Counted from the first letter of the stretch, positions 1,649 to 56,062 are shown. The stretch is DNA of 64,000 nt from a phage (GCA_036930585.1 GCA_036930585.1_3066.1), one strand, 5' to 3'. The notes: generated by a model not told the origin, from the sequence alone. Made by a program: numbers and translations.

Positions 1649-2324
1649 ACGCAAAAGATACATAAAAACGAATAGCTTCCAATGCATTGATTACATGGAG
1701 GCAAAGATAAAGAGACTTCATTAGTGCTCGTTTAGCTTCGGCTTCTTGTTTAATAGCTCGATTTAAACGAAAATCAGCATCAGGAGATTCTTTAGCTAGT
1801 TCTACAAATTCTTTAGCGTTTTCCCATTCACGGGTTTTAATCAGAACGTCATCATAATAACGTCCAATGGATTCAGCACGTTTCATGATAGCTTCATCTA
1901 ATACAATCTCATCAAATACCTTAGCAGGGTCATTGAACAAGTTACGCATGATATGGGTATATGAACGACTGTGAATAGTTTCGCTAAAAGTCCATGTAGC
2001 AACCCATGTATCAAGGCTTGGATCTGAAAGCAATGGCATAAGTACAGCAGACGGCGCACGCCCCTGGATGGAGTCTAACAATGACTGGTATTTTAAGTTA
2101 TTGATAAATATAGATTTTTGATGTTCTGGGAGCTTGTTAAATTGTGCAGCATCCATCATTAAGTTTACTTCTTCAGGCCGCCAGAAAAATGATAAAGATC
2201 GCTCAATAAGTTCTTCAAATACCTTATGTCGTTGAATATCATAACGTGCAATTCCAAGACCTGAACCGAAGAACATAGGTTCTGTTAAAACATCAACTGG
2301 ATTTGTATTAAAAACTGTAGACAT
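1649..2324 (-). CDS. nrdB: Ribonucleotide reductase small subunit NrdB, exon 1
   Basis: MSTVFNTNPVDV...EAIRFYVSFA; in-frame TAA immediately after 5' splice site. Confidence 0.85.
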
Positions 2325-2376
2325 TAATTTTTCCTCTTAGTTAATAGTTGGTGACTCGTCCGTGAGTCAAATTATA

Positions 2377-4641
2377 TCATAATTTACACGCTGCACAATC
2401 GTCGGCTTTAGGAGTTTCTATTTCATAATCATCAGTACCAGAACCATCACGGGTATTATGATAATAGAAATTTTTAATGCCATAATACCATCCGTATAAC
2501 ATGTCATCAATCATTATTGACATTGGAACCTTTCCTTTTGGAAAAATCTGCGGGTCATAGTATGTATTCGCTGAAGCTGATTGACATACCCATTTCAGCA
2601 TAATAGCTACCTGCGTAAGATAAGGTTTATTACCTTTCTTAGCTAATTTCCACGTATAATCATAGAGGTCTATGTTATGCTCAATATTGGGCACGACTTG
2701 ATTAAAGGAACCCTCTTTTGATTCTTTAACAGAGACTGGTCCACGTGGAGGCTCGATACCGTTTGTACTGTTAGAAACTTGGGAAGATGACTCACATGGC
2801 ATAAGTGCTGATAATGTGCTATTACGGATGCCAAAGAGCTTAAGGTCTTCCCGCAGCGACGACCAGTCACAAACGTATTTTGGAGCTGCGATTTGGTCAA
2901 TCTTTTTATTGTACCAGTCGATAGGTAATTCGCCTCGAGACCAACGAGTGTCTGAATAATATTCGCAAGGTCCTTTTTCTTTGGCGAGCTTAATGGATGC
3001 TTTAATGAGCCCATACTGTAATCTCTCAAATAGTTCATGTGTTAAATCGTTAGCATCTTCGTAAGAAGCAAAGTTACTTGCCAGCCAAGCTGCATAGTTA
3101 GTAACACCTACACCGAGGTTTCGACGCTTTTTAGCTTTTAAAGCTTCTGGAACTGGATATCCTTGGTAATCCAACAGATTATCAAGAGCACGAACTTGAA
3201 CTTCTGCCAATTCATTAATTTTATCTTGGTCTTGCCAGTCAAAATTATCTAGTACGAATGCAGAGAGAGTACACAATCCAATTTCAGCATCAGGACTATT
3301 CACATCATTTGTTGGAATAGCAATTTCACAGCACAAGTTACTCTGGCGAATAGGTGCCTTTTCACGAATAAACGGAGTATAGTTATTCGTATTATCAATG
3401 AACTGCACATAAATCCTTGCCGTTCCTGAACGTTCAGTCATGAGCAATTCAAATAGTTCACGGGCTTTAATACGCTTTTTGCGAATATTAGGGTCTTTTT
3501 CTGCTGCTTCGTATAATTCACGGAAACGGTCTTGGTCTTTAAAATAAGAATAATAAAGCTCTCCACCCATTTCATGCGGACTGAACAAAGTAATGTAATC
3601 ATTCTTTCCGAATCGTTCCATCATTAGGTCATTCAGTTGAACGCCATAATCCATATGACGGATACGGTTTTCTTCTACGCCTTTGTTATTTTTCAAAACG
3701 AGAAGATTTTCAACTTCCAAATGCCAAATAGGATAATAAGCAGTAGCAGCGCCGCCACGAATTCCACCCTGTGAGCATGATTTAACAGCAGTCTGAAAAT
3801 GTTTCCAAAAAGGAATAACACCAGTATGGCGTACTTCACCTGTGCCAATCTTAGAACCTTCAGCACGAATCATACCAACGTTAATACCAATTCCAGCGCG
3901 TTTAGAGATATATTCAACAATTGAAGCAGAAGCCTTATTGATAGACTTCAGTGAATCGCCTGCCTCAATAACAACACATGAACTAAACTGCCGAGTTGGA
4001 GTACGGCAACCAGCCATAATAGGAGTTGGTAATGAAATCTGTCGAGTAGATACCGCTTCATAAAAACGGATAACATGTTTTAATCTATCAACAGGTTCAT
4101 CTTGATGCAATGCCATTCCAATAGTCATAAATGCAAACTGTGGAGTTTCATAAATTTGACCAGTGGTTTTATCTTTAACTAGATATTTTTCTTTTAATTG
4201 CATCGCCCCGGAATAAGTAAATTCCATATCCCGCTCGTGCTTAATTTTTGATTCTAAAAATGTAATTTCTTCTGCTGAATATTTTGACAATAATTCAGGG
4301 TCATATTTACCTTCATTTACACAGTAAGAAATATGGTCAATAAATGAACGTGGTTCATACTGCCCATAAACATGCTTACGAAGAGCAAACATTAAACAGC
4401 GTGCAGCTACATATTGATAATCAGGCTCTTCAACCGAAATAGAATTCGCAGCGGCCTTAATGACAATAGTCTGAATGTCATCAGTTGTCATTCCATCACG
4501 GAGATATGATTTAATATTTTCATATAATTCATAAGGATCTACTGATGTTCCCTCAGATGCCCAAGATAAAACTTTAATAATTTTTTGCGGGTCAAAGCTC
4601 TGAGAAACACCACTACTTTTGATAACATTAATTAATTGCAT
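2377..4641 (-). CDS. nrdA: Ribonucleotide reductase large subunit NrdA (754 aa)
   Basis: 754-aa ORF with class Ia R1 features (C-terminal CxxC, active-site region); length matches T4 NrdA. Confidence 0.95.
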   Translation of the reverse strand: MQLINVIKSSGVSQSFDPQKIIKVLSWASEGTSVDPYELYENIKSYLRDGMTTDDIQTIVIKAAANSISVEEPDYQYVAARCLMFALRKHVYGQYEPRSFIDHISYCVNEGKYDPELLSKYSAEEITFLESKIKHERDMEFTYSGAMQLKEKYLVKDKTTGQIYETPQFAFMTIGMALHQDEPVDRLKHVIRFYEAVSTRQISLPTPIMAGCRTPTRQFSSCVVIEAGDSLKSINKASASIVEYISKRAGIGINVGMIRAEGSKIGTGEVRHTGVIPFWKHFQTAVKSCSQGGIRGGAATAYYPIWHLEVENLLVLKNNKGVEENRIRHMDYGVQLNDLMMERFGKNDYITLFSPHEMGGELYYSYFKDQDRFRELYEAAEKDPNIRKKRIKARELFELLMTERSGTARIYVQFIDNTNNYTPFIREKAPIRQSNLCCEIAIPTNDVNSPDAEIGLCTLSAFVLDNFDWQDQDKINELAEVQVRALDNLLDYQGYPVPEALKAKKRRNLGVGVTNYAAWLASNFASYEDANDLTHELFERLQYGLIKASIKLAKEKGPCEYYSDTRWSRGELPIDWYNKKIDQIAAPKYVCDWSSLREDLKLFGIRNSTLSALMPCESSSQVSNSTNGIEPPRGPVSVKESKEGSFNQVVPNIEHNIDLYDYTWKLAKKGNKPYLTQVAIMLKWVCQSASANTYYDPQIFPKGKVPMSIMIDDMLYGWYYGIKNFYYHNTRDGSGTDDYEIETPKADDCAACKL

Positions 4642-5510: not shown

Positions 5511-5830
5511 CATTATGTTCAGATAAGGTCGTTAATCTTACCCCGGAATTATATCCAGCTGCATGTCACCATGCAGATCAGACTATATCTTCAACTTGTT
5601 AAAGCAAGTTGTCTATCGTTTCGAGTCACTTGACCCTACTCCCCAAAGGGATAGTCGTTAGGCATTTATGTAGAACCAATTCCATTTATCAGATTTTACA
5701 CGGTAAGTAACTAATCCTGATGAAATTATTAAAGGGTAGTCCTACAATTTAGCACGGGATTGTCTACTAGAGAGGTCCCCCGTTTAGATAGATTACAAGT
5801 ATAAGTCACCTTATACCTAGGCCTCAATTA
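5511..5830 (-). mobile_element. td group I intron, ORF-less (320 nt)
   Basis: Intron starts UAAUUGAGGCC after exon ...UUGGGU and ends ...ACAUAAUG; only the last ~23 codons of an I-TevI-like ORF (..GLVTYRVKSDKWNWFYINA*) remain. Confidence 0.85.
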
Positions 5831-6379
5831 ACCCAAGAAAACATCTACACTGCGTTGATACCATTGTAAATCAAGATAACCATTACGCACATTAAACTGA
5901 TAGAACATATGACAAGGTGGTAATGCCATATATTTAAGTTCAGCTGGATTCCACGCAGAAACAATTTGACGCCTATCACTTGGTAGTTTTTTAATACGAT
6001 CAATAACTTCTATAATTTGGTCTACACCGCCAAAATCGCGCCACTGTTTTCCATAAATTGGGCCAAGTTCACCACTATGGTATCCTAAATCTTTTGCCTG
6101 ATTTTCGTAATTTTCATCCCAAACTGTTTTGCCTTGGATTAACGAATCATGCTGAATTAATCGTAAATCATTGACATTTGTGCTTCCTGATAAAAACCAA
6201 AGTAGCTCAGCAATGCAAGCTTTCCAGGCGAGCTTCTTAGTTGTTACCGCAGGAAAACCTTTAGTTAAATCCCAGCGTAATTTAGTACCGAATAAAGCAA
6301 TTGTTCCTGTGCCTGTTCGGTCATCGGTTTCATAGCCATTTTCAAAAATGTCTTTAATTAAATCTTGGTATTGTTTCAT
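5831..6379 (-). CDS. td: Thymidylate synthase, exon 1
   Basis: MKQYQDLIKDIFENGYETDDRTGTGT... 183 codons; exons 1+2 give 286 aa. Confidence 0.9.
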
Positions 6380-6424
6380 TTAGTACCTTATATAAATTAT
6401 AATACATTTTATGAAGCTAAATAA

Positions 6425-6772
6425 TCAATACGGTTTAGCATCAAATTTTCTCTCAATTTCAGGTGTGAAATATAATTCTTTACCACGTTTGGAAAAGCGA
6501 CCAATAATATGATAATTATTCTCATCAAACATGATATTACCAATATCCATAGCTTTCAACCAAATATCGATATTTCTATCCAGCTTTATGTCAAAATTCC
6601 AATACGGAGAACTATTACCGAAAATACTGCAAGCGGATTCAGTGAAACAACTGCTATAAATCTTGTCTTTAGGAACTACTAATTGATAGACACCTTTAAT
6701 AAACTGAGGACCCTGCCACTTTGGCTGTTTCGTGTCTTTTTCTAATAGAATAGGGTAATAATTAAAATTCAT
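6425..6772 (-). CDS. Hypothetical protein (115 aa) inserted between frd and td
   Basis: Intact ORF filling a ~410-bp gap between frd stop and td start; no recognisable motif. Confidence 0.5.
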   Translation of the reverse strand: MNFNYYPILLEKDTKQPKWQGPQFIKGVYQLVVPKDKIYSSCFTESACSIFGNSSPYWNFDIKLDRNIDIWLKAMDIGNIMFDENNYHIIGRFSKRGKELYFTPEIERKFDAKPY

Positions 6773-6791
6773 ATTTCCGCCACGCGTTATT

Positions 6792-9722: not shown

Positions 9723-9800
9723 TTTTATTTCCTTTTTAATTTAATTAACAGTTGGTGCTATGACGATGTATGACCTCATAGCTGGTCAGTGAGATAATTA
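9723..9800 (-). promoter_or_regulatory. Gene 32 mRNA leader: autoregulatory operator (pseudoknot plus unstructured AAUUAAAUUAAAAAGGAAAUAAAAAUG)
   Basis: Sequence GCUAUGAGGUCAUACAUCGUCAUAGCACC... upstream of the gp32 ATG matches the known translational operator. Confidence 0.6.
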
Positions 9801-9805
9801 TAATC

Positions 9806-9813
9806 TATTTATA
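9806..9813 (-). promoter_or_regulatory. Late promoter TATAAATA upstream of gene 32
   Basis: Minus strand TATAAATA. Confidence 0.45.
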
Positions 9814-9821
9814 ATAAGCAA

Positions 9822-17808: not shown

Positions 17809-20754
17809 ATGGCTACTTTAAAACAAATACAATTTAAAAGAAGCAAAACTGCAGGTCAACGTCCTGCTGCTTCAGTATTAGCCGAAGGTGAATTGGCTAT
17901 AAACTTAAAAGATAAAACAATTTTCACAAAAGATGACTCAGGTAGTGTTATAGAATTAGGTTTAAAATATGGAGGAACTATAAATGGGTCTTTAGAGGTT
18001 ACAGAAAATATAACTGGAACTTTAATTGGAAATTCTAGCACAGCTACTAAATTGCAAACACCTAGGAAAATTAATGGTATATCTTTTGATGGGTCAAAGG
18101 ACATTACCTTAACTCCATCTGACATAAATGTCAATAGCACAACATTTATAAAAAATAATGGCGAATTACCTACTGATGCTAATTTAGATACGTATGGGCC
18201 CATTGAAGAATATCTTGGTGTTTGGTCGAAATCTACTTCAACAAATGCGCAACCAGCAAATAAATTCCCAGAAGAAAATGCCGTAGGTGTACTAGAAGTA
18301 TTTGTGGCCGGCCAATTTGCTGGCACTCAGCGTTATACTGTAAGATCTGGTAACGTCTATATTCGTTCCTTATCTGCTAAATGGAATGGCGTCGATGGTC
18401 CATGGGGTGTGTGGCGTAATGTTCAAGCGTCAACTCGTCCACTTTCACAAACGATTGACCTTGATAGCTTGGGAGAATTAGAACATTGTGGCTTATGGCG
18501 AAACAGTTCAAGCGCAATCGCATCATTTGATCGCCATTATCCAGAAGAAGGATCAGCCGCACAAGGATTTTTAGAAATATTTGAAGGTGGAAACTATTCT
18601 CGCACACAGAGATATACGACCAGATTTGGTGTTGTTTATACTCGTTGTCTCGCTGCTGCATGGGATGCTAGTGCACCTAAGTGGGAGGAATGGAAGCAGG
18701 TTGGTCATGGCACACCAGCGACTTTCTATGATGGAGATCTGAATGATTTTAAAACTCCCGGGTTATATAATATTTTAGGCACTGATGCCGTTATTAACTG
18801 TCCTACCGGTGAAGGTTTGCCGACTGTTATTGTTGGTTTGCTGGAAGTTAAACAGCGTGCTTCTGGTGGTGCTATTTTCCAAAAATTTACTACTGCCGGA
18901 ACAGGCGCAACTACTCGCGGACGTATTTTTGAGCGTGCATATACTGATGGTGCGTGGGGTGCATGGAACGAAGTATATACATCTTATTCTCTTCCAATTA
19001 CTTTGGGTATGGGTGGTATTAAAGCTCAATTAGCGGAGTTAGATTGGCAAACCTTTGATTTTGTTCCTGGTAGTATGTTTAGCGTTCCTTTGAACAAAAT
19101 AAAGAACATGCCAGCAAATATGGATTGGGGGACGATTGACGGAAACCTGGTTATGTTTTCCGTTGGTCCTAGTGAACACACTAGCACAGGGCGTACTGTT
19201 CAGGTTTGGCGCGGTACTGTATCCCAGACAAACTACCGTTATTTTGTCGTTCGTGTGTTCGGTAATTCTGGAAATAGAACTTGCACAGTCCGCCGTGTTG
19301 TTCTTGAAGACGGATCACATACTTGGACTGCTCAACAAAACTTTAGGGGATTGCTTAATATCACTGCTGCTGTTAATCTTGGTGCTAATCAGAAAATTTC
19401 ACTTGCTCCAGGAGCATATATTCAAGCCCCTGCTAGCGGTTCTGGTTCTAATACTTACGCAAATCAGAATACTACCATTGCGCCATTATATCAGGCTATT
19501 GACGATTCAAATAAAAACCAGTTTGCGCCAATTGTTAAACAGAAAAATACTGTAAGTAATATCACCTTTGCCACTGGTATGGCTATAGATACATCCGAAT
19601 ATAAGATCATTGCTCAGGGTGATTTATCCGCTGATGGAACAGCAGATGGGTTAAAACAGTGGACTTTCATGCCGTCAGGTTATTTTAAATCTCCAGGGCG
19701 TGTATATGTCGGTGATGCGTTCCTTAATACAGATGGTAATATTGCCGGTTCAATCTGGAAGAAATATAACAATGCGACAAATTTAGATGCTGCCTTGAAT
19801 ACTCGCGTAGGTAAAGGCGGTGATACGATGACAGGTCGGTTAACAATCAATGCACCTAATGATTCTATTGTATTATCAACGACTGCTAGTAATTCTTTGC
19901 ATATTCGTGGTGACATAGACGGGACTGGTAACTGGTATATTGGTAAAGGTGGTGCTGATAATGGATTAGCGTTCTATAGTTATGCTACTAATGCTGGTGT
20001 ATACATTACAAACGCAGGAGATATCTCGCTAAGTCCAAAGGGTGCCGAAACGGCTCAGGTCAATAACGTTCGATTATATATTCATGGTGAACGTTGGACC
20101 GCTAGTCAACCAGGTGATTGGGGCAACCAATGGCGAGTAGAAGCACCAATATTCGTTGATCATGGTTATGTTTCACAGGATTGTTATTATCCTATTCTTA
20201 AAGCAAGAAGCGTTATAGCCAATCAAGGATATAGCACCGCTGTTGACTTTGGTATGCGTCGTATTCCATCACAGTGGGGGCAAGCAATCATTCGTGTCGG
20301 ATCCACGGAGGCTTCTCCTGATGCTGGACACCCACAAGCTGTGTTTGAATTCCATCATGATGGATTCTTTTATACACCAGGAAATGGTAGCTTTAGCGAT
20401 GTGTATATTCGTTCTGACTCCCGTCTCAAGATTAATAAAGAAGAATTAGAATATGGAGCGGTCGAAAAAGTTTGCCGACTGAAAGTTTATATTTACGATA
20501 AAGTTAAGTCTATTAAAGACCGTAGTGTTATTAAACGTGAAGTTGGTATTATTGCTCAGGACCTTGAAAAGGAATTACCAGAAGCTGTATCTAAAGTTGA
20601 AGTTGATGGATCTGATGTTCTGACAATTTCTAACTCTGCTGTGAATGCTCTTTTAATTAAGGCTATTCAGGAAATGAGTGAAGAAATTAAAGAATTGAAA
20701 ACGCCTCTCTTTACTAAAATTGCTCGCAAAATTAGTAAATATTTTAAATTCTAA
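17809..20754 (+). CDS. 37: Long tail fiber distal subunit gp37, T2-like type with C-terminal intramolecular chaperone domain
   Basis: 981 aa; N-terminus [13 protein letters not shown]... conserved; diverges from T4 gp37 after ~50 aa; no His-box tip. Confidence 0.9.
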
Positions 20755-20760
20755 CAACAA

Positions 20761-20775
20761 GGGGGAAATGCCCCC
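20761..20775 (+). terminator. Short GC hairpin between genes 37 and 38 (weak terminator/attenuator)
   Basis: GGGGG-AAAUG-CCCCC followed by UUU only. Confidence 0.3.
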
Positions 20776-20790
20776 TTTGGAGTATAAATT

Positions 20791-21591
20791 ATGGCAGTAG
20801 TTGGTGTTCCTGGTTGGATTGGAAGTTCAGCCGCAAATGAAACAGGACAGCGCTGGATGAGTCAAGCGGCTGGTCAATTAAGATTGGGTGTTCCTTGCTG
20901 GATGAGTCAATTTGCAGGTCGCTCACGAGAAATTATTCACACGCTTGGAGCAGACCATAACTTCAATGGTCAATGGTTCCGAGATAGATGTTTTGAGGCA
21001 GGTAGTGCACCTATAGTGTTTAATATTACCGGAAATTTGGTATCATATTCTAGAGACGTTCCTTTATTCTTCATGTATGGAGATACACCTAATGAATATG
21101 TTCAGTTGAATATTGGTGGCGGCGTCCATATGTGGGGTAGAGGTGGACAAGGTGGATGGACCCATTCCGGCGGAAATGGTAATGGTCAACAAGGTGGTCA
21201 TTGTATTCAAAATGACATCGGTGGACGATTAAGAATTAATAACGGTGGAGTAATTTGTGGTGGAGGTGGAGGTGGAGGTGGTATCGCTTATCGTCCTCAC
21301 TCTGGTGCAAATTGGCAAGATATTGGTGGTGGTGGAGGAAGACCATTTGGCCCAGGAGGAGGCGGAGGTTATTCCGGCGGCGCAGCTTCTTATGATGGCC
21401 CAGGAGGTGGTTACCAATACGGAAATGCTCACTCTGGCCAGGGTGGTGGTGCCGGAGGAAATGGACAAAATGCCTGGTCTGATGGTGGTAAAGTTCTAAA
21501 AGTTGGAGCTGGTGGCGCTGCCGGATATGCTGTTATAGGATCAGCTCCAACATGGCAAAATGTTGGAGTAATATATGGTCCAAGAGTATAA
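20791..21591 (+). CDS. 38: Receptor-recognising adhesin gp38 (T2-type, glycine-rich motifs)
   Basis: 266 aa; [44 protein letters not shown]... with poly-Gly blocks. Confidence 0.85.
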
Positions 21592-21622
21592 TTTTGAATA
21601 AATACCCCTAAAAGGAGGGTCT

Positions 21623-29820: not shown

Positions 29821-29838
29821 AAGGGCCGAAGCCCTTAT
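29821..29838 (-). repeat. 18-nt hairpin repeat AAGGGCCGAAGCCCTTAT (copy 2), directly after rIIB stop
   Basis: Exact copy of 29593..29610. Confidence 0.8.
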
Positions 29839-30773
29839 TTAAATTGTTCAGTAACGTCTTCAACTACTTCGTATTGGCAGGTACGCATTTTAGCATCGTT
29901 GTAATCAATCGGAATTGATACTACATCACGCGGATGTACTTTAACTTTTACAACTCGGCTAGTTGAACTGCCAAAGTGACGAATATAAGATTTAGAACAC
30001 ACATGCAGACCACGAGAACAAGTTTGTGTATCATCGTCATTCACACGAGTACGTGGCATTTTAACTACTTTACCCGGACTGTTATCAAAGGTGTTTGAGT
30101 GACAGTCAAAGTAGTTGTCACGAACTACTTTCCAAGCATAGAAGTAACCATCTTCTGTAATTTCAATATCATTTGCTACCAAGAAATCAAAGAGTCGAGA
30201 TACCGCTTTTTGGCTTGGGTTTTCCAGCAGATTTTCCAAGAACGGAAAATAAAATTCAAAGTTTTCACCTTTTTCCATCGAATCGAGAATACGATCAACC
30301 AGACCAGACCGTAATTCGATATTTTGATAGAACAAGCTTCCGCCTTCAATTCGAACATCACCAGAAATATATTTTTCAACAGCGCGACGAACATTAATTT
30401 TTTGTGCCGCTTCTTCCAACTTATCCGCTACAAGCAGATTAAGAATTTCCTGGAAGTTTGAATGAGTATTAGGAGTTGCGTTATAAGTTACACCGTCAAC
30501 AGTAATTGAAATGAATTTTTTAGATGCATTCCAAATAATGTCAGATTTAGCAACTGGAGCAATAGCTACATCGCTATTAACTTTAACTGTAATATCACCG
30601 CTAATAGTAACTTTAGAGCGTTTAGCTTCTTCAGCATTTTTCAAAACACGACGGATTGTGTCAACCGATACACCTTGCCAATCAGCCAATTCCTGTTGGG
30701 TGTAATTACCACTTGAATACAGCTTAACAATTTCAGCTTGTTCGTTTTTGGTCAGGCATTTAATATTGTACAT
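29835..30773 (-). CDS. rIIB: rIIB protein
   Basis: 312-aa ORF MYNIKCLTKNEQAEIVKLYSSGNYTQQELADWQGVSVDTIRR... Confidence 0.95.
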   Translation of the reverse strand: MYNIKCLTKNEQAEIVKLYSSGNYTQQELADWQGVSVDTIRRVLKNAEEAKRSKVTISGDITVKVNSDVAIAPVAKSDIIWNASKKFISITVDGVTYNATPNTHSNFQEILNLLVADKLEEAAQKINVRRAVEKYISGDVRIEGGSLFYQNIELRSGLVDRILDSMEKGENFEFYFPFLENLLENPSQKAVSRLFDFLVANDIEITEDGYFYAWKVVRDNYFDCHSNTFDNSPGKVVKMPRTRVNDDDTQTCSRGLHVCSKSYIRHFGSSTSRVVKVKVHPRDVVSIPIDYNDAKMRTCQYEVVEDVTEQFK

Positions 30774-30784
30774 AATTTTCCTTA

Positions 30785-32962
30785 TTAGGCCGCAAGGGCC
30801 TTCATAGTTTTAGCGATTTGGGAAACTTCATCATCGCTTAAAGAATTGCGATAACCGATGAAGTCGGAAACAATACGGAATTTCTTGGTAAACTCAGCAA
30901 CCATTTTATCACTATTTTTTGAAGCATTACGTGATAATTCATCAAAGAGATTAGTTACTGTCCAGATATCATGACCGATGGTATCTTTTCCACCATTGAA
31001 ATACACACCGCGTAATGAACTAACCATATTACCAAGTCGTGTATATTCTTCAGAAACTTCATCTGTACTGAAGTACTTCATCATAAAATCTAGTTCAGGA
31101 TACTTGATAATTTTATCAATATATCGTTGAGCTGAACTTGAATAACCTACGTACTTATCATAATCTACATCATCAAAAGCATCTACATATAAATCACGCA
31201 GAGTTTCAAAAATACATTGGCACTGACCGAGTTCTTTTACCTTTTTCTGTAAAAGCGGACGAATAACATAAAATTCATTAATGCCAATAAGATTAGCCAT
31301 ACGAATCAAAATATTCATAGATGGATGACAAAGTGATGTAGTACCATCCATAGAGAAAATATCAGAACGATGCATATACGCTACATACCCAGTAATTTCA
31401 TCTGCTTCTGATGTGAGCGTAAATAATTCCTCTTTTTCCCAGCGCCCATCTTTAATTTCAAACTTAAATGCTGTAGCAGCTTTAGGACGAGGAGCTTTAC
31501 TTTTAACTACCTTTGGAATATAGCTTTTAACTAAAGCTTCGATTTCTGACAAATAATGAATGTTAACTTCATCACTTTCAAACATCGCCATAATATCAGG
31601 GAGTAAATCAATCTGCGATTCTACTTCTGGATTAATAAACAGAAGGCGTTCGTTGTGATGAATATTCAAAGTGTTATTAAATTCACTATCATCTAACGCA
31701 TGTGCTAATCCACGGACAATATTAACACGATTTTTAATATTATCAATAACGATATTAATTTTTGTTGCATTAATACCAAACAGACGATAACTTGATGCAA
31801 CGGCTGAAGTTTCATGACTTTGCTTAATGCGCTTCAGTCGAGGGTCAAGATTTACTTCATACACAACTCCTGCATTGCATAACTTACTATCAGGTTCAAA
31901 CATGCTTTGCATCTTCTTATATGACAGATTTTTAGTCGTAAATTTGACTGAATTACTAATCATATAATCTCGAGCAGAATACCCCATCTTCATCAATTCA
32001 CGATATGTATGACGGGGAGATGTGGATTCTTTAAATCGTTTTACATCTTCATTAAATGCTTTCTCACTGAGTTCTTTAACTCGTTCAATAATATTTTTAC
32101 GAGTACGATCATCCAGTGAAAGAGCCTCGCGAGATGGAGCAATATCAAGTGAACCCATTGGAAACTTAATGTAATTCACTTCATTGCGAATGCTTAGCCA
32201 GTTACGGTCTCTAATAACACCATCGATAGGATAAACAATACCGCCATAGATAGCATATAATCCACCACGATCAGGCCAGTATCTTTCTGGATTTACACCG
32301 TAATAGTCATCAAAATCCGGAAAATAATCAATTTCGCGGTCAAGACCATTAATGATAGCCAAATCTTTGAACGGTCGCATGATATAAGAAACTTCATAAG
32401 CAAAGTTTCTAAAGTCTTTTTCTTCAACTGGAACTACGATTTCAATACCAGTTTTATCATCTGGACCCATTTCTTTTACGAATGTAGGTTTAATCTGTGG
32501 GCCATCACCATCCATGTAAGCTACATAACCACGAATTTCACCTTTATGATACGAAGTAATACTAAATGTATCAGTATAACTAAACGGAGATTTAGAACCT
32601 AAACCAAATCCGCCAATAAAGTCATTAGATTCAGCTTTAGATGAACTGAAGTATGAATTATACAACCCAGGAGAATTATCATCACCTTGAATATCAAAAT
32701 CGCTCATACCTGGACCAAAATCTCGACAAACAAATCGCGGATCTAATCGTCCTGGAACTTGAATGATAAATTTTTCAGGATTTCCATTGAGAGCATGGGC
32801 ATCAATCATGTTGGTAATCAATTCACGGACTACTGCGCGAATCTTGTTTGTATACAAATCAGATGACAGAATTTTGAATACTTTAGGAGATGCTGTGATG
32901 CTAAATGCCTTTGATTTAGAACCATTGCCAAGAATTGTTTCTTTTTCAGTGGTGATAATCAT
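30785..32962 (-). CDS. rIIA: rIIA protein
   Basis: 725-aa ORF with GHKL ATPase-like N-terminal region. Confidence 0.95.
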
Positions 32963-32972
32963 AATTTCCTCA

Positions 32973-33176
32973 TTAATTCATATTGCGTTTAATAACTTCA
33001 GCAACTTCTAGTAATTCATCTTTAGTTGCGGTGTCGGATTGAATTTTATCTCTAATAGCCTTAAAGCGGTTTTTAAACTCTTCGGCTTCTCCCATATCGA
33101 AAAAGCGTTGAATGATTCTATATTCTCGATGAACTGCTTTATCAAAAAGTTCTAAATTTACTTTATATGATTTCAT
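32973..33176 (-). CDS. Hypothetical protein (rIIA.1-like, 67 aa)
   Basis: ORF track. Confidence 0.5.
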
Positions 33177-33201
33177 TTCAATATCCTCATTTGCCCAATT
33201 A

Positions 33202-33231
33202 ATTATACCACATCCTTGTGGTAAAGTAAAC
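33202..33231 (-). promoter_or_regulatory. Early promoter (GTTTAC -35, TATAAT -10) inside 3' end of gene 60
   Basis: Minus strand GTTTACTTTACCACAAGGATGTGGTATAAT. Confidence 0.5.
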
Positions 33232-33763
33232 TACTGGCTCATCCATTCTTTACGAAGGTCAGCATTATCTCCCATGAGCATTTCAAAAAGTTCTTTCCAA
33301 TTCTCAGGAAGTTTAACAACATCATATACTGGATTTTGAATCATCTCACGATATTCAGATTTTTCCAAAGAGCCAAGTCCTTTAATATAACGGATGCTAT
33401 GTTTAGGTAGAGCATCTTTGGCACTCTCATATTCAGCGACTGTATAAAACCATTCTTGTTTTTTACCGACCTGAGCGATGATTACAGGAGTTTTGACGAA
33501 GCGAATTCTTCCTTGTTCAAACAGTTCTGGCCAATTACTAAAAAATCCGAGCAGAGAAGGATAAATAGAACCTAATCCAATAATCTCTTAATTATGAGGT
33601 ATTTCTATAGATAGCCCGAAGGCTATCCATCGTGATCTGCGTCTGTCATAATAGCGACATTCGCATAGTTCATTGAAGAGGATTTAATAGAACGACGAAC
33701 ATTGTTCTGCAATTTATATTTTTTCATATCAACGCTAGAAGAATCAATTTTTACAAATTTCAT
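33231..33763 (-). CDS. 60: Topoisomerase II subunit gp60, with 50-nt translational bypass
   Basis: Codons 1-46 (MKFVKIDSS...TDADHDG) end at GGA 33628..33626 followed by TAG; translation resumes at UUA 33575..33573 (LGSIYPSLLGFF...) to stop 33233..33231. Confidence 0.85.
33576..33625 (-). promoter_or_regulatory. Gene 60 coding gap (bypass element): take-off GGA, stop UAG, UUCG-loop hairpin, landing GGA
   Basis: GGA UAG CCUUCGGGCUA UCUAUAGAAAUACCUCAUAAUUAAGAGAUUAUUGGA UUA read directly from the minus strand. Confidence 0.85.
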
Positions 33764-34562
33764 TATACACCTCATAGAACTTTTCATCAGGAATCCAACC
33801 GCGTTTAAATTCATTAAATGCTCGGCCGAATAATTTTGAATTCACAGTTATATTATTAACTGATTTCCATTTAGCAACTCCCGTTCGTTTATAATGATCG
33901 GGGTCATATTTCGTGACGTACCATTCATATAAATTTGGTATTAATTTTACAGCCTCTGGATTTGTCGCTGATTTATTATACCATGGTTTCGCTTTTTCAA
34001 GTTCAGCTGCTTTTGCAGTAGCAGCAACAGTATTTCCAATACCAACTAATTTTTCAGCTTTAATGCGTGGGTCATTAACATGAAGACGAAAAACTTCGCC
34101 TTTTTCATTTTTAAAGCATGTCATGCCTTTAATTCCAGGAAGCTTAACACCTTTATTAACGCCGCACCATTCCTTTGGGTTAAATGATCCTTTAATTAAT
34201 AAGGCGCATTTACCCGATTTAATACTTCTCATTAAAACTTTATTTTTCATAAAGTTTTTTGACCATTCAGATACTGCTCTTTGATGGTAAATTCTAGCAA
34301 TTTCATATAATTTACTAGAACGTAAATATTTTTCAGTGTTTAACATTCTATTCATCGCATATGCCATTTCACGATTACGATGAATTTTATATAGTAGAAA
34401 ATGTGCTAAAAAGTGTTCACGAAAAGTCAGTTTCACCAAATTTTCTTTATCATCAGAACCTCCCATTGATCTTGGAAGGATATGATGAATTTCACCCTTA
34501 AATTTAGAAACGCGGGTTTTACCCCGCGCTATTAAGTCATTATAGATTTTTTCGTAATTCAC
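33744..34562 (-). CDS. mobA: HNH homing endonuclease MobA (272-aa ORF; start uncertain)
   Basis: Free-standing ORF between 39 and 60, overlapping both; HNH-like HH...N...H region (EIHHILPRSMGGSDDKENLVKLTFREHFLAH). Confidence 0.7.
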   Translation of the reverse strand: MNYEKIYNDLIARGKTRVSKFKGEIHHILPRSMGGSDDKENLVKLTFREHFLAHFLLYKIHRNREMAYAMNRMLNTEKYLRSSKLYEIARIYHQRAVSEWSKNFMKNKVLMRSIKSGKCALLIKGSFNPKEWCGVNKGVKLPGIKGMTCFKNEKGEVFRLHVNDPRIKAEKLVGIGNTVAATAKAAELEKAKPWYNKSATNPEAVKLIPNLYEWYVTKYDPDHYKRTGVAKWKSVNNITVNSKLFGRAFNEFKRGWIPDEKFYEVYNEICKN

Positions 34563-36093
34563 CTACTGTTATCCATTTACCATTAATCTGTACTTCATCA
34601 TTTTCATTTACGATAATTGTATCGCCATTTAGTTCGAAAGTAAACCACTCGCCATCTTCTTTTTCTTCAAACGCCTTTTCACCGAGAACTAATCCAGTGA
34701 TTGCGCAAATATCAAACAATTCTTTGTTTTTAAGCATATCAGCATATGACATACCCCAACTGTTGAGAACTTTACCGCGCAATGGATAACCACCATGAAG
34801 TTCTTTATCACGAACATCAATAAGATATCCGATAGCAGAATCACCCTCAGTCAAGAAAAGAGTAGTGTCAGCATCTTTACCGCAAAGATTCGCTTTAATG
34901 TGTTTATGAACCTTAGCTTTAGAAGCCTTTTTAGCTGCTTTAGTTTCTGCTGCCTTTTCTGCCGCCAATTTACGAGCCAAAGCAGCTTCAATAATCGGCA
35001 TTAGAATTGCTTCATTATTTAGAATAGCACGTGAAATCTTTTTAGCATCAAGTTGAATATGACTACGGATTTCACCAAATGGAGAAGTCAAACGCTCTTT
35101 AGTTTGAGAATCAAATCGCATGTTTTTCATATCACGGACAAACATAACGATAGTCAAACATTCTTTAACGCGTGCTTTAGTCACATCAATTTTGAACTTA
35201 CGTTTGATTTGTGGAATAAGGTCTTCACAAATATCATCCATAACACAGTCAATGTGATGGCCACCATTCTTAGTGTGAATGTTATTCACATAAGTTAATT
35301 GACGAAAACCATCCGGTGAACGACCAACCGCAATAGAGCAATTTTCTTGTTCTTGAACGATAGCATGTTCATCATATTGGCGTGCATATTTCTTAAAATT
35401 GCCCTGAACCTTTTTACCATTAAAGGTAAATTGAATATCAGGATAAACTACTGCAAGTGTCTGGAGACGATCTAGTGTAATGTCAAGATAAACTTGGGAC
35501 AGCTCATTAGTTTCAAATGACATAAAATCAGGAATGAAAGTAACACGAGTTCCTTTCCATTTTCCAGGAATAGTTTCCCATGATTTATTTTCCATGCCAT
35601 TTGAACAACGAACTACAATATTATTTTGACCATCACCAGTTTCACCGACAAACATCACAGAAAAAATGTTTGTCAAACTAGAACCAACACCATTCATACC
35701 ACCGGTGACACGTTCTTTATCATCACCAAAGTTACCACCTGCTTTTGGAATAGTCCAGGCAGCAACAGGACCAGGAATTTCTTCACCAGTAGGTGTTTTG
35801 ACCATCGCTTGTGGAATACCGCGACCGTTATCTTCAACTGTTACTTGATTGTTTTTAATAGTAACATTAATTTTATTTGCGAATTTAAACTTAGTACGAA
35901 TACCTTCATCTACTGAGTTATCGATAATTTCATCAATAAGCTTAACAAGACCAGGTACATACTGAACACTTTCCCATTTACCAAACAGAAAGCGCTCATG
36001 CATTTCATTAGCAGAAGAGCCAATATACATGCCGCTACGCTTTTTGATATGTTCAATATCGCTCAGAATTTTAATTTCATTCTTAATCATCAC
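34540..36093 (-). CDS. 39: DNA topoisomerase II large subunit gp39 (ATPase)
   Basis: 517-aa ORF with GHKL ATPase motifs (IDNSVDE, GxxGxG). Confidence 0.95.
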   Translation of the reverse strand: MMIKNEIKILSDIEHIKKRSGMYIGSSANEMHERFLFGKWESVQYVPGLVKLIDEIIDNSVDEGIRTKFKFANKINVTIKNNQVTVEDNGRGIPQAMVKTPTGEEIPGPVAAWTIPKAGGNFGDDKERVTGGMNGVGSSLTNIFSVMFVGETGDGQNNIVVRCSNGMENKSWETIPGKWKGTRVTFIPDFMSFETNELSQVYLDITLDRLQTLAVVYPDIQFTFNGKKVQGNFKKYARQYDEHAIVQEQENCSIAVGRSPDGFRQLTYVNNIHTKNGGHHIDCVMDDICEDLIPQIKRKFKIDVTKARVKECLTIVMFVRDMKNMRFDSQTKERLTSPFGEIRSHIQLDAKKISRAILNNEAILMPIIEAALARKLAAEKAAETKAAKKASKAKVHKHIKANLCGKDADTTLFLTEGDSAIGYLIDVRDKELHGGYPLRGKVLNSWGMSYADMLKNKELFDICAITGLVLGEKAFEEKEDGEWFTFELNGDTIIVNENDEVQINGKWITVGELRKNL

Positions 36094-36143
36094 TTATCCT
36101 CGTTTGGTTTCGGGAATATTATACTCCGGTAATCATAAAGCTA

Positions 36144-36161
36144 AAGGCCCGAAGGCCTTTT
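36144..36161 (-). other. GC hairpin AAAGGCC-CGAA-GGCCTTT between ORF 36160..36429 and gene 39
   Basis: Perfect 7-bp stem; weak U-tract. Confidence 0.4.
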
Positions 36162-36429
36162 ATTTAAAACGAATAGTCGAATCCTTGAAGAATAGTCCAG
36201 AACATACTGTTCCTTCTACTTTCTGCCCAGTAGGTCCAATAGCACGAAATCCAGTACGCTGGAAATCATTTTCAGAGCAACCGAACCAATTATATCCAGT
36301 GATTTCAATATTAGTAAAACCACTTGAAGACAAAACTTTGGTTGCATTATCAGCATCAGTACATCCTATTAAAGACACTGCTAATACTAATGCTGCGATA
36401 GAACGATTAATATATTTCATAATTTTCAC
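36160..36429 (-). CDS. Putative lipoprotein (89 aa)
   Basis: Signal peptide with lipobox LIGC. Confidence 0.5.
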   Translation of the reverse strand: MKIMKYINRSIAALVLAVSLIGCTDADNATKVLSSSGFTNIEITGYNWFGCSENDFQRTGFRAIGPTGQKVEGTVCSGLFFKDSTIRFK

Positions 36430-36797
36430 TTAAATTTAATGGCTTGAAGAAGACTAATAACTCTCAAGCGGCTTCTTTCATCTTTAACTGTAAAGGAAAG
36501 AGGGTCACCAGATTTCATAGTGATAGTGCATTCAAAATCAAAATCTTCGGGAACTTCTTCGAATAGATCAAATTCTTCATCATATATTAGAACATTACTC
36601 TGAAAACTGTGAAGAATTTTTCCGTCATTTCCAGATGCTGTACTAATCATTGTAACGTTATTACCTTTCATATCTTCAACGATAAATTCGCTTGTAGATA
36701 TTACATTACTAATAGAACCATTCCTATAAATAGCAGAAAATAGATATTTCTTTTCTTCACCTTCGCGAATGCGATATTTCTTACCGATTTTAAACAT
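36426..36797 (-). CDS. Hypothetical protein (123 aa)
   Basis: ORF track. Confidence 0.5.
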   Translation of the reverse strand: MFKIGKKYRIREGEEKKYLFSAIYRNGSISNVISTSEFIVEDMKGNNVTMISTASGNDGKILHSFQSNVLIYDEEFDLFEEVPEDFDFECTITMKSGDPLSFTVKDERSRLRVISLLQAIKFK

Positions 36798-46808: not shown

Positions 46809-46876
46809 GTAATTCTCCTTTTATTTAAATTACATGATTATTTATAATAAATTCTCGCGGCTTTTAAGACGAGCTG

Positions 46877-47392
46877 TTAATAACCTCGGTCTTGACGTTC
46901 AAAATTATGTTTGTTTTTCAAATAATAAAGTTTAAAGATTTCTTCCGCATTCATTCCAAGGCCAGCAAACATATTTAATACGAAATGAAATATATCCACA
47001 AGCTCAAATTTAATTTCGAGCTGATCTTCTGGGGACATTTCATCAATGCGTTTTTCTTGCGCTTCAATATAACGTGCTTTCCATTTTTTCCAAACTGCCG
47101 ATGCATCTTTTTCACCACGTGACATTTCACCAAGAGAAGTCAGAAGTTCGCGGAATTCATCGTCAATGCAGTCTTTTTGTTCACGCATCCAAGAAACAAC
47201 ATCACCGGCAGTTTCTAATTTATCTGGATGATAGCAGTATTCGCGGTCATTTGCTAAACGAATCTGCAGAGATTTCTGCATGTCAAGCATTACCTGCAGC
47301 GGGTCTTTTTCATCACCGAGAATATCCCAATATTCATTTTGAGCTTTATCAGCGCCTTCGATCAGTTGACTACATTCGTTAAAGTAAGCCAT
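46877..47392 (-). CDS. 56: dCTPase/dUTPase gp56
   Basis: 171-aa product from ATG 47392 (MAYFNECSQ...). Confidence 0.8.
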   Translation of the reverse strand: MAYFNECSQLIEGADKAQNEYWDILGDEKDPLQVMLDMQKSLQIRLANDREYCYHPDKLETAGDVVSWMREQKDCIDDEFRELLTSLGEMSRGEKDASAVWKKWKARYIEAQEKRIDEMSPEDQLEIKFELVDIFHFVLNMFAGLGMNAEEIFKLYYLKNKHNFERQDRGY

Positions 47393-55213: not shown

Positions 55214-56062
55214 TTAATCAACTGCTATTGGATGAATAGCATTAAACTTATGAAATGCTTCTGATTTTTCTTTACGCGAAACACACATGCGAAGAACCTT
55301 TAATGGTTCGTCTTCTTCACCCAACGATTTTCGTTTTTCAATATTAGAAGTTTTCCAACGAGCTTGCTCTGGAAACTCTCTATTGATTTGCTCAAGCGCT
55401 CTATTATGTTTAGAATTACTACGAATTGAACTACACCCGCCAGGAGCTTGTGCTTTTCCAGATACAACCAGATATTTGAACAAGGCCAAATGCGGATAAC
55501 CTTGATTAATTAAATTGAGAAATGCATACATATCTTCGCACAAATCAATTTTTCCATACCCAATTTGTTCTGTCGTAAGTTTTCCGAGGTCATACCATGT
55601 ATTCGTGAATCCATATGAATTTTCACGATAATTACCCCAAGATGAAGTAATTTTAAAAATAGGTAGGCGAGCATGACCGTGATAATACCCGCAATCCATG
55701 GCATCTTCGACGTATTGAATCAATTCATAGAACTGTTCATGAGTCAATTGATTGACTTTATCTACACAGCGACGATCATCTTTCTTTCGCATTGAACTCA
55801 TACGAATAGTAGTATCATCGTCAATCATCCAGATTCGTTGACCTGCATACATATCAGTAATCGCTTTACGAGTACCAGCAATTCCATTAACATCATCAGG
55901 AATAGTTATAATTTTAGCTCTAGAGCCATAAGCGTCATAATAAGCTTTTTCTTCGTGTTCACGTACTACAATATGTGGTTCATAATCAGTCGGAAACATA
56001 TCAAGGGCAGAAACTGCCCCTACGCGTTGATAACTTGGAATTACGAATTGAATCATTTCCAT
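55214..56062 (-). CDS. Glycosyltransferase (GT-A fold, DxD motif) in the beta-gt position; probably T2/T6-type HMC-glucosyl transferase
   Basis: 282-aa ORF with IWMIDDDTTI; unlike the 351-aa T4 beta-gt. Confidence 0.55.
   Translation of the reverse strand: MEMIQFVIPSYQRVGAVSALDMFPTDYEPHIVVREHEEKAYYDAYGSRAKIITIPDDVNGIAGTRKAITDMYAGQRIWMIDDDTTIRMSSMRKKDDRRCVDKVNQLTHEQFYELIQYVEDAMDCGYYHGHARLPIFKITSSWGNYRENSYGFTNTWYDLGKLTTEQIGYGKIDLCEDMYAFLNLINQGYPHLALFKYLVVSGKAQAPGGCSSIRSNSKHNRALEQINREFPEQARWKTSNIEKRKSLGEEDEPLKVLRMCVSRKEKSEAFHKFNAIHPIAVD

Follow-up and report, generated by a model that had tools for sequence, protein, structure and literature searches.

The textbook example of ribosomes that pass over a long segment of mRNA is gene 60 of bacteriophage T4; the MobA cassette that accompanies it explains how it spreads. 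According to published T4 work, the bypassing occurs on the ribosome and needs the nascent peptide, tRNA-Gly and EF-G; on the T4 sequence, to which the one described here is identical, its efficiency is about 50-60%, and a single gp60 polypeptide across the gap was long ago shown by experiment. The residues of the nascent-peptide signal given in the literature are KKYK..., Y16, Q19, V22, R24, Y33, M39, T40 and D45, and the 3' stem-loop has been described as poorly conserved, host-encoded and possibly dispensable (preprint, doi 10.1101/2022.08.31.505936). Clade 1 MobA elements have been reported to measure 1097-1106 nt, with 64 nt deleted and 9 extra nt (Manning & Atkins 2022, doi 10.1101/2022.08.31.505936), and mobA of laboratory T4 is treated as pseudogenised in the same 2022 preprint. 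Bonocora et al. (2011 PNAS), as cited in that preprint, reported for T4 and T2 the nicking of the cassette-free gene 39 by MobA and a protective effect of the 50-nt insert; the nick site is placed in homR by the literature.

The DNA analysed here is a 64,000-nt stretch from a phage (GCA_036930585.1), referred to as the window. A gene 60 bypass element with an adjacent HNH endonuclease cassette had been predicted in it at 33231-34562. It is almost certain, in our judgement, that this locus is an intact clade 1 MobA element of T4-type phages in the topoisomerase II large-subunit gene and that its gp60 would be made by a 50-nt bypass; no feature of the sequence speaks against this reading. The gene 60 element is already fully described and the window holds another clade 1 carrier; what it adds is one more phage that carries the cassette naturally, with mobA intact and a backbone other than that of T4.

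Gene 60 and its 50-nt gap

The positions of all the features are given in Table 1. The ATG of gene 60 is at 33763, with GAGG ahead of it. ORF1 ended in ...GAU CAC GAU GGA and was followed by UAG; on the minus strand the gap read UAG CCUUCGGGCUAUCUAUAGAAAUACCUCAUAAUUAAGAGAUUAUU GGA, after which the sequence continued as UUA GGU UCU.... The take-off GGA at codon 46, the UAG, the UUCG-loop hairpin, the gap of 47 nt between the take-off and landing GGA codons and the landing GGA itself, all parts of the original prediction, were each found in place on the minus strand. Inspection of 33576-33625 for a continuous reading frame found none, as a script showed each of the three frames to be closed by stop codons, with UAG at gap nt 1 and 19 and UAA at 32 and 36. 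By the same kind of search GGA occurred only once in the gap, as the landing codon, and A+U reached 78% in gap nt 25-47, the 3' half of the gap. The distance of 6 nt from the GAG to the landing codon lies within the 5-7 nt characteristic of T4-type bypassing.

Table 1. Features of the gene 60-mobA-gene 39 region and its neighbours, in coordinates of the window
Feature	Position	Strand	Remarks
rIIB	29835-30773	minus	
rIIA	30785-32962	minus	
rIIA.1	32973-33176	minus	
Gene 60	33231-33763	minus	next in order: mobA, gene 39
Gene 60 ORF2	33231-33575	minus	codons 47-160 and stop codon; Toprim C-terminal part; LGSIYPSLL...EWMSQ then stop (translation)
BLAST anchor, ACG-C40 gene 39 nt 1483-1818	33566-33231		99.4% identity
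Predicted post-landing stem-loop	33508-33559	minus	encoded by the host phage, not the element; candidate 3' stem-loop or 'forward slippage barrier'
Whole MobA mobile element, 1106 nt	33567-34672	minus	BLAST against unsplit gene 39 of ACG-C40
50-nt non-coding gap, UAG through landing GGA	33576-33625	minus	frame resumes at 33575
Landing GGA	33576-33578	minus	
Mini-Shine-Dalgarno GAG	33585-33587	minus	gap nt 39-41, 6 nt 5' of landing GGA
Take-off stem-loop, 10 bp	33607-33630	minus	UUCG tetraloop 33617-33620; 5' arm holds take-off GGA and UAG
UAG directly 3' of codon 46	33623-33625	minus	
Take-off GGA, codon 46	33626-33628	minus	
Gene 60 ORF1	33626-33763	minus	codons 1-46, MKFV...DADHDG then stop (translation)
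homR, divergent copy of replaced gene 39 part	33627-33672	minus	78% identity to ACG-C40
BLAST anchor, ACG-C40 gene 39 nt 1427-1472	33672-33627		78% identity
Predicted 5' stem-loop upstream of take-off, GCGAAUGUCGCUAUUAUGACAGACGC	33638-33665	minus	from fold; sequence identical to T4
Nascent-peptide signal core, codons 14-30, KKYKLQNNVRRSIKSSS	33674-33724	minus	identical to T4; role from literature
mobA, free-standing HNH homing-endonuclease gene, intact	33744-34562	minus	272 aa; GTG start right after in-frame TAG
Gene 39, N-terminal part of topoisomerase II large subunit	34540-36090	minus	516 aa from ATG; Pfam HATPase_c and DNA_gyraseB; T4T annotation
BLAST anchor, ACG-C40 gene 39 nt 1-1418	36090-34673		99.0% identity

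A comparison with phages that have a continuous gene 39 had been proposed as a check, and ORF2 proved colinear with aa 492-605 of ACG-C40 after removal of exactly 50 nt. The GGA|UUA join rebuilt the Toprim acidic motif DxDxDG (...AIMTDADHDG-LGSIYPSLLGFF...) exactly as it stands in the continuous ACG-C40 gp39: the protein of ACG-C40 reads ...NIAIMTDADHDGLGSIYPSLLGFF... at this place and the joined gp60 of the window reads ...NVAIMTDADHDG|LGSIYPSLLGFF.... The joined gp60 also matched Pfam TOPRIM_C. Since the removal of exactly these 50 nt restores both the motif and the colinearity, this is the strongest comparative argument for the hop as the sole decoding route.

The UAG right after codon 46 could also mean that gene 60 is simply broken, with only the 46-aa peptide made, or with the C-terminal part produced separately by re-initiation, and no single polypeptide. 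Such a reading draws some support from the literature, according to which termination or drop-off at the gap claims about half of the ribosomes, and from the GAG mini-Shine-Dalgarno inside the gap. However, the script found no ATG, GTG or TTG in the downstream frame between the gap UAA and 33368, so that re-initiation could yield nothing longer than 45 aa, and this without the Toprim part. In addition, the conserved DxDxDG is rebuilt exactly at the junction and ORF2 differed from T4 at eight positions, all of them synonymous, which indicates that the ORF2 frame is under purifying selection. We therefore consider a broken gene 60 extremely improbable.

The RNA signals associated with bypassing in T4 could also be recognised. 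The take-off hairpin GAUGGAUAGCC-UUCG-GGCUAUCUAU had a predicted energy of -14.7 kcal/mol (z = -4.7), with one of 200 shuffled sequences as stable, and it recurred in the fold of its 101-nt context. The nascent-peptide signal of the literature was present, as ORF1 matched residues 1-46 of T4 gp60 over their full length; the same residues matched the full-length 46-aa nascent chain of PDB 5np6 (E = 2.4e-23), which is a ribosome stalled at take-off with its nascent chain modelled.

The predicted post-landing stem-loop was weaker, with -11.0 kcal/mol here against -15.5 kcal/mol in T4T in a proxy comparison of the folds of the window and T4T, and it was no better than shuffled sequence. Substitutions relative to T4T at 33524, 33516 and 33509 lower its predicted stability. 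The exact 221-nt combination present in the window occurred in no public record, four records being one base away. On these folding predictions, the weaker post-landing stem-loop would be the only difference from T4 that could matter.

Removal of the 50 nt from the RNA, as a small intron or by other processing, followed by ordinary translation, would give the same gp60, and this phage does use RNA splicing, since it carries a self-splicing group I intron in td (5559-5840). Nevertheless, the Rfam library that finds the td intron gave no match in 32900-34700 at E up to 1, 50 nt come nowhere near the length that the ribozyme core of a group I or group II intron needs, and the published T4 work on the identical sequence puts the bypassing on the ribosome. 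RNA processing is thus hardly conceivable as the explanation of gp60, and a hop by the ribosome is by far the better one. The Rfam search also implied that no curated RNA family covers the bypass element. A self-splicing group I intron at the gap was evaluated as a candidate in its own right and discarded, as the covariance models detected no ribozyme core in 32900-34700 at E up to 1. A scan of 32900-36400 for promoters and terminators found fewer promoter-like sites than in shuffled sequence and was uninformative for the element.

MobA element and its empty site

The boundaries of the element were defined by comparison with ACG-C40, the cassette-free reference, in which a single 605-aa gene is annotated as 'gp60plus39'. 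The element lies at the conserved Toprim site of the large-subunit gene, where its 1106 nt replace 64 nt (nt 1419-1482 of the ACG-C40 gene 39). They contain the C-terminal extension of gp39, mobA, the N-terminal extension of gp60 with the homologous region, and the 50-nt gap together with the 9 nt that follow it. The gp39 protein was colinear with aa 1-473 of ACG-C40 and then departed into FEEKEDGEW...RKNL, its last 43 aa (34540-34672, 133 nt) being an element-encoded C-terminal extension; on the other side, the element supplies a 46-aa N-terminal extension to gp60. These figures are those published for clade 1, and the replaced length lies within the 55-75 nt of MobA elements. The interval 33231-34562 of the original prediction contained both the bypass and mobA, but the element ends at 34672, 110 nt further on, so that the last 133 nt of gene 39 had been missed. 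In the annotation, gene 60 should be entered as a coding sequence joined from two parts, and the end of gene 39 should be marked as derived from the element. The ORF list started gene 39 at a GTG at 36093, one codon upstream of the ATG at 36090 that T4T and ACG-C40 annotate and where the similarity to ACG-C40 begins.

A free-standing HNH ORF, mobA, had been predicted between genes 39 and 60, and its identity was corroborated by a motif and by a protein family. The motif EIHHILPRSMGGSDDKENLV...H (aa 23-51) aligned with HNH nucleases in PDB, and MobA matched PHROG 655 'homing endonuclease' nearly end to end (aa 1-265, E = 1e-57). The Pfam HNH score of 20.1 bits was just under the gathering cut-off of 21.4, and an NCBIfam scan gave a weak match of the HNH region to IscB and nothing else. 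The length of 272 aa falls within the 269-279 aa expected of the HNH-family ORF of the element. The gene shares 23 nt with gene 39 and 20 nt with gene 60, in a different frame from either, and its product shows three amino acid differences from MobA of T4T.

Compared with T4T and the window, mobA of the T4 reference AF158101 (2145-2974, equivalent to window 33744-34562) contains 11 single-base insertions at scattered positions, and because of them the record annotates a mobA pseudogene and '60.1'. Their pattern resembles old sequencing error more than true damage to the gene, although the literature treats mobA of laboratory T4 as a pseudogene.

Distribution among phages and genome background

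The locus had been predicted to hold the classic 50-nt ribosome-hopping element, and its sequence was indeed identical to that of the T4 gene 60 bypass. When it was aligned with T4T and the T4 reference, not one base differed between the 3' end of mobA and a point 52 nt beyond the first base of the landing codon. The T4T annotation has the same layout: a two-part gene 60, a 'non-coding translational bypass region', mobA labelled an H-N-H homing endonuclease, and gene 39. The joined 160-aa gp60 was identical to the gp60 part of the T4 topoisomerase II chain in PDB 8yo3.

The 197 nt at 33567-33763, which comprise the N-terminal extension and the gap, were 100% identical in 27 public records including T4 and T4T, and were present at >=97.5% identity in 42; diverged homologues were found in 12 further records (Salmonella S16-like, Proteus, Shewanella Thanatos and others). 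The distribution of the cassette is patchy, in agreement with the expectation that only a subset of phages would carry it: 42 of the 503 matching records covered it and the rest matched the flanks only, these figures referring to the GenBank phage collection only. The exact 53-nt GGA...GGA string had no match in IMG/VR viral contigs. That the interruption is a sequencing or assembly artefact has a negligible probability. In its favour, the old T4 record does hold 11 single-base insertions in mobA (legacy error or strain difference). Against it, 27 records deposited independently of one another had the same 50 nt with 100% identity, 42 reached at least 97.5%, and the Salmonella S16, Proteus and Shewanella phage clades contain diverged homologues.

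One of the cassette-bearing records, PQ349265.1 (phage CJY920), has 5115 nt where window 32000-36200 has 4201 nt. The roughly 0.9 kb of extra DNA lies somewhere in the interval from rIIA to gene 39 and may be another inserted element; the record is unannotated.

The cassette had been taken to mark this phage as T4-like at this locus. This held for the locus itself, but the flanks and the wider window were closer to cassette-free phages, which were the best matches over 25 kb. Within the element there were 7 mismatches to T4T in 1106 nt (0.6%), against 3.5% (49 mismatches) over the remainder of gene 39 and 2.4% (8 mismatches) over ORF2; over the same outside stretches ACG-C40 showed 14 mismatches in gene 39 and 2 in ORF2. 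T4-like sequence gave way to ACG-C40-like sequence no more than about 20 nt from the 5' boundary, where the element meets gene 39, and no more than 43 nt from the 3' boundary in gene 60. A sequence that is T4-like at the cassette locus only fits a mobile cassette.

Several other differences from T4T were observed elsewhere in the window. The set of selfish endonucleases differs from that of T4 gene by gene: mobE, the I-TevI ORF, segG and segF are absent, the usual sites of mobE, segG and segF having been examined at window 2320-2380, 9786-9820 and 46847-46889, whereas mobA and segA are present. At window 5514-5827 a short group I intron (Rfam Intron_gpI, 5559-5840, minus strand, 70.3 bits, full model) interrupts td. 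It has no endonuclease ORF, whereas in T4 the td intron contains I-TevI, which makes T4T 689 nt longer here; the arrangement in the window was 99.9% identical to that of phages U115, HP3 and ESh30. A 282-aa beta-glucosyl-HMC-alpha-glucosyltransferase of the T2/T6 type (55214-56062, minus strand; PHROG 842, E = 2e-89) replaces the T4 beta-gt, suggesting that DNA modification in this phage probably differs from that of T4.

Three segments, 6383-6786, 36425-36794 and 17943-21597, had no megablast match to T4T. The first contains, between td and frd, an ORF of 115 aa (6425-6772, PHROG 1928) and the second an ORF of 123 aa (36426-36797, PHROG 622, weakly goF-like), both with function unassigned, and the third corresponds to the diverged tail-fibre adhesin region, genes 37/38.

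Mechanism and relation to known systems

The sequence of events proposed below is modelled on published T4 experiments with the identical sequence, and bypass, its efficiency, and nicking and homing by MobA would apply to this phage by that analogy. The element splits the large-subunit gene into gene 39 and gene 60, and codons 46 and 47 of gene 60 are thereby separated by 50 nt that cannot be translated. During translation, peptidyl-tRNA-Gly would pause on the GGA of codon 46 with UAG in the A site, while the nascent peptide, KKYKLQNNVRRSIKSSS together with neighbouring residues, would grip the exit tunnel, slow the ribosome and anchor the peptidyl-tRNA-Gly. The top of the UUCG hairpin may then fold in the A site, the anticodon would detach from GGA, and an EF-G-driven pseudo-translocation would slide the ribosome some 50 nt without decoding, the 5' stem-loop presumably refolding behind it to confer directionality. 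The same tRNA would re-pair at the second GGA, aided by the GAG mini-Shine-Dalgarno and the downstream stem-loop, and decoding would restart at UUA (Leu47), giving a single gp60 of 160 aa and about 18.6 kDa.

As for its spread, in a mixed infection MobA, as an HNH homing endonuclease, would nick gene 39 of the phage that lacks the cassette, where this gene is unsplit, and repair would copy the element in; the 50-nt insert would make the DNA of the carrier resistant to MobA. We further propose, as a tentative and somewhat doubtful idea, that the sharply bounded T4-type patch in a non-T4 backbone reflects natural homing with almost no co-conversion of the flanks, by which T4 bypass signals would have become paired with a host-encoded post-landing stem-loop predicted to be weaker, and that bypass efficiency or landing fidelity might differ measurably from T4. 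The locus offers at most a natural downstream stem-loop variant for the measurement of bypass efficiency and opens no new question.

Among the known systems, the closest is the bypass of T4 gene 60 itself (Huang et al. 1988; Weiss et al. 1990; later work of the Atkins, Rodnina and Puglisi groups). The sequence through the landing site and the gp60 protein are identical here, and the differences, all from 33524 downstream, consist of the eight synonymous substitutions in ORF2, three of which fall in the predicted post-landing stem-loop.

The element as a whole agrees with the clade 1 MobA element (Bonocora et al. 2011; Manning & Atkins 2022, doi 10.1101/2022.08.31.505936) in its size, the 64-nt replacement, both extensions, the 9 nt and the out-of-frame overlaps of mobA. 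It differs from T4T at seven nucleotides, its mobA is intact whereas that of the T4 reference is annotated as a pseudogene, and the overlap of mobA with gene 39 is 23 nt, counted from the GTG start, against the 1-20 nt quoted in the preprint.

The phages with an unsplit gene 39 (ACG-C40, RB14 and T2) encode one 605-aa protein, without mobA or the gap, and show the target site as it is when empty and sensitive to MobA. The flanks of the element were 99.0% and 99.4% identical to gene 39 of ACG-C40, and the protein was colinear once the element and the gap were removed.

More distant parallels share only part of this organisation. The 'byp' inserts of Magnusiomyces capitatus mitochondria are likewise short (27-55 nt), mobile, situated in coding genes and hopped between matched codons, but their sequence is unrelated, they have no Shine-Dalgarno, stop codon (an unreadable sense codon takes its place) or endonuclease gene, and they are present in many copies per genome. 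In phage Aeh1, MobE in nrdA is also a free-standing HNH homing endonuclease that splits an essential gene, with added terminal tails that let the halves reassemble; in contrast to gene 60 it has no translational bypass element, and mobE is absent from this window.
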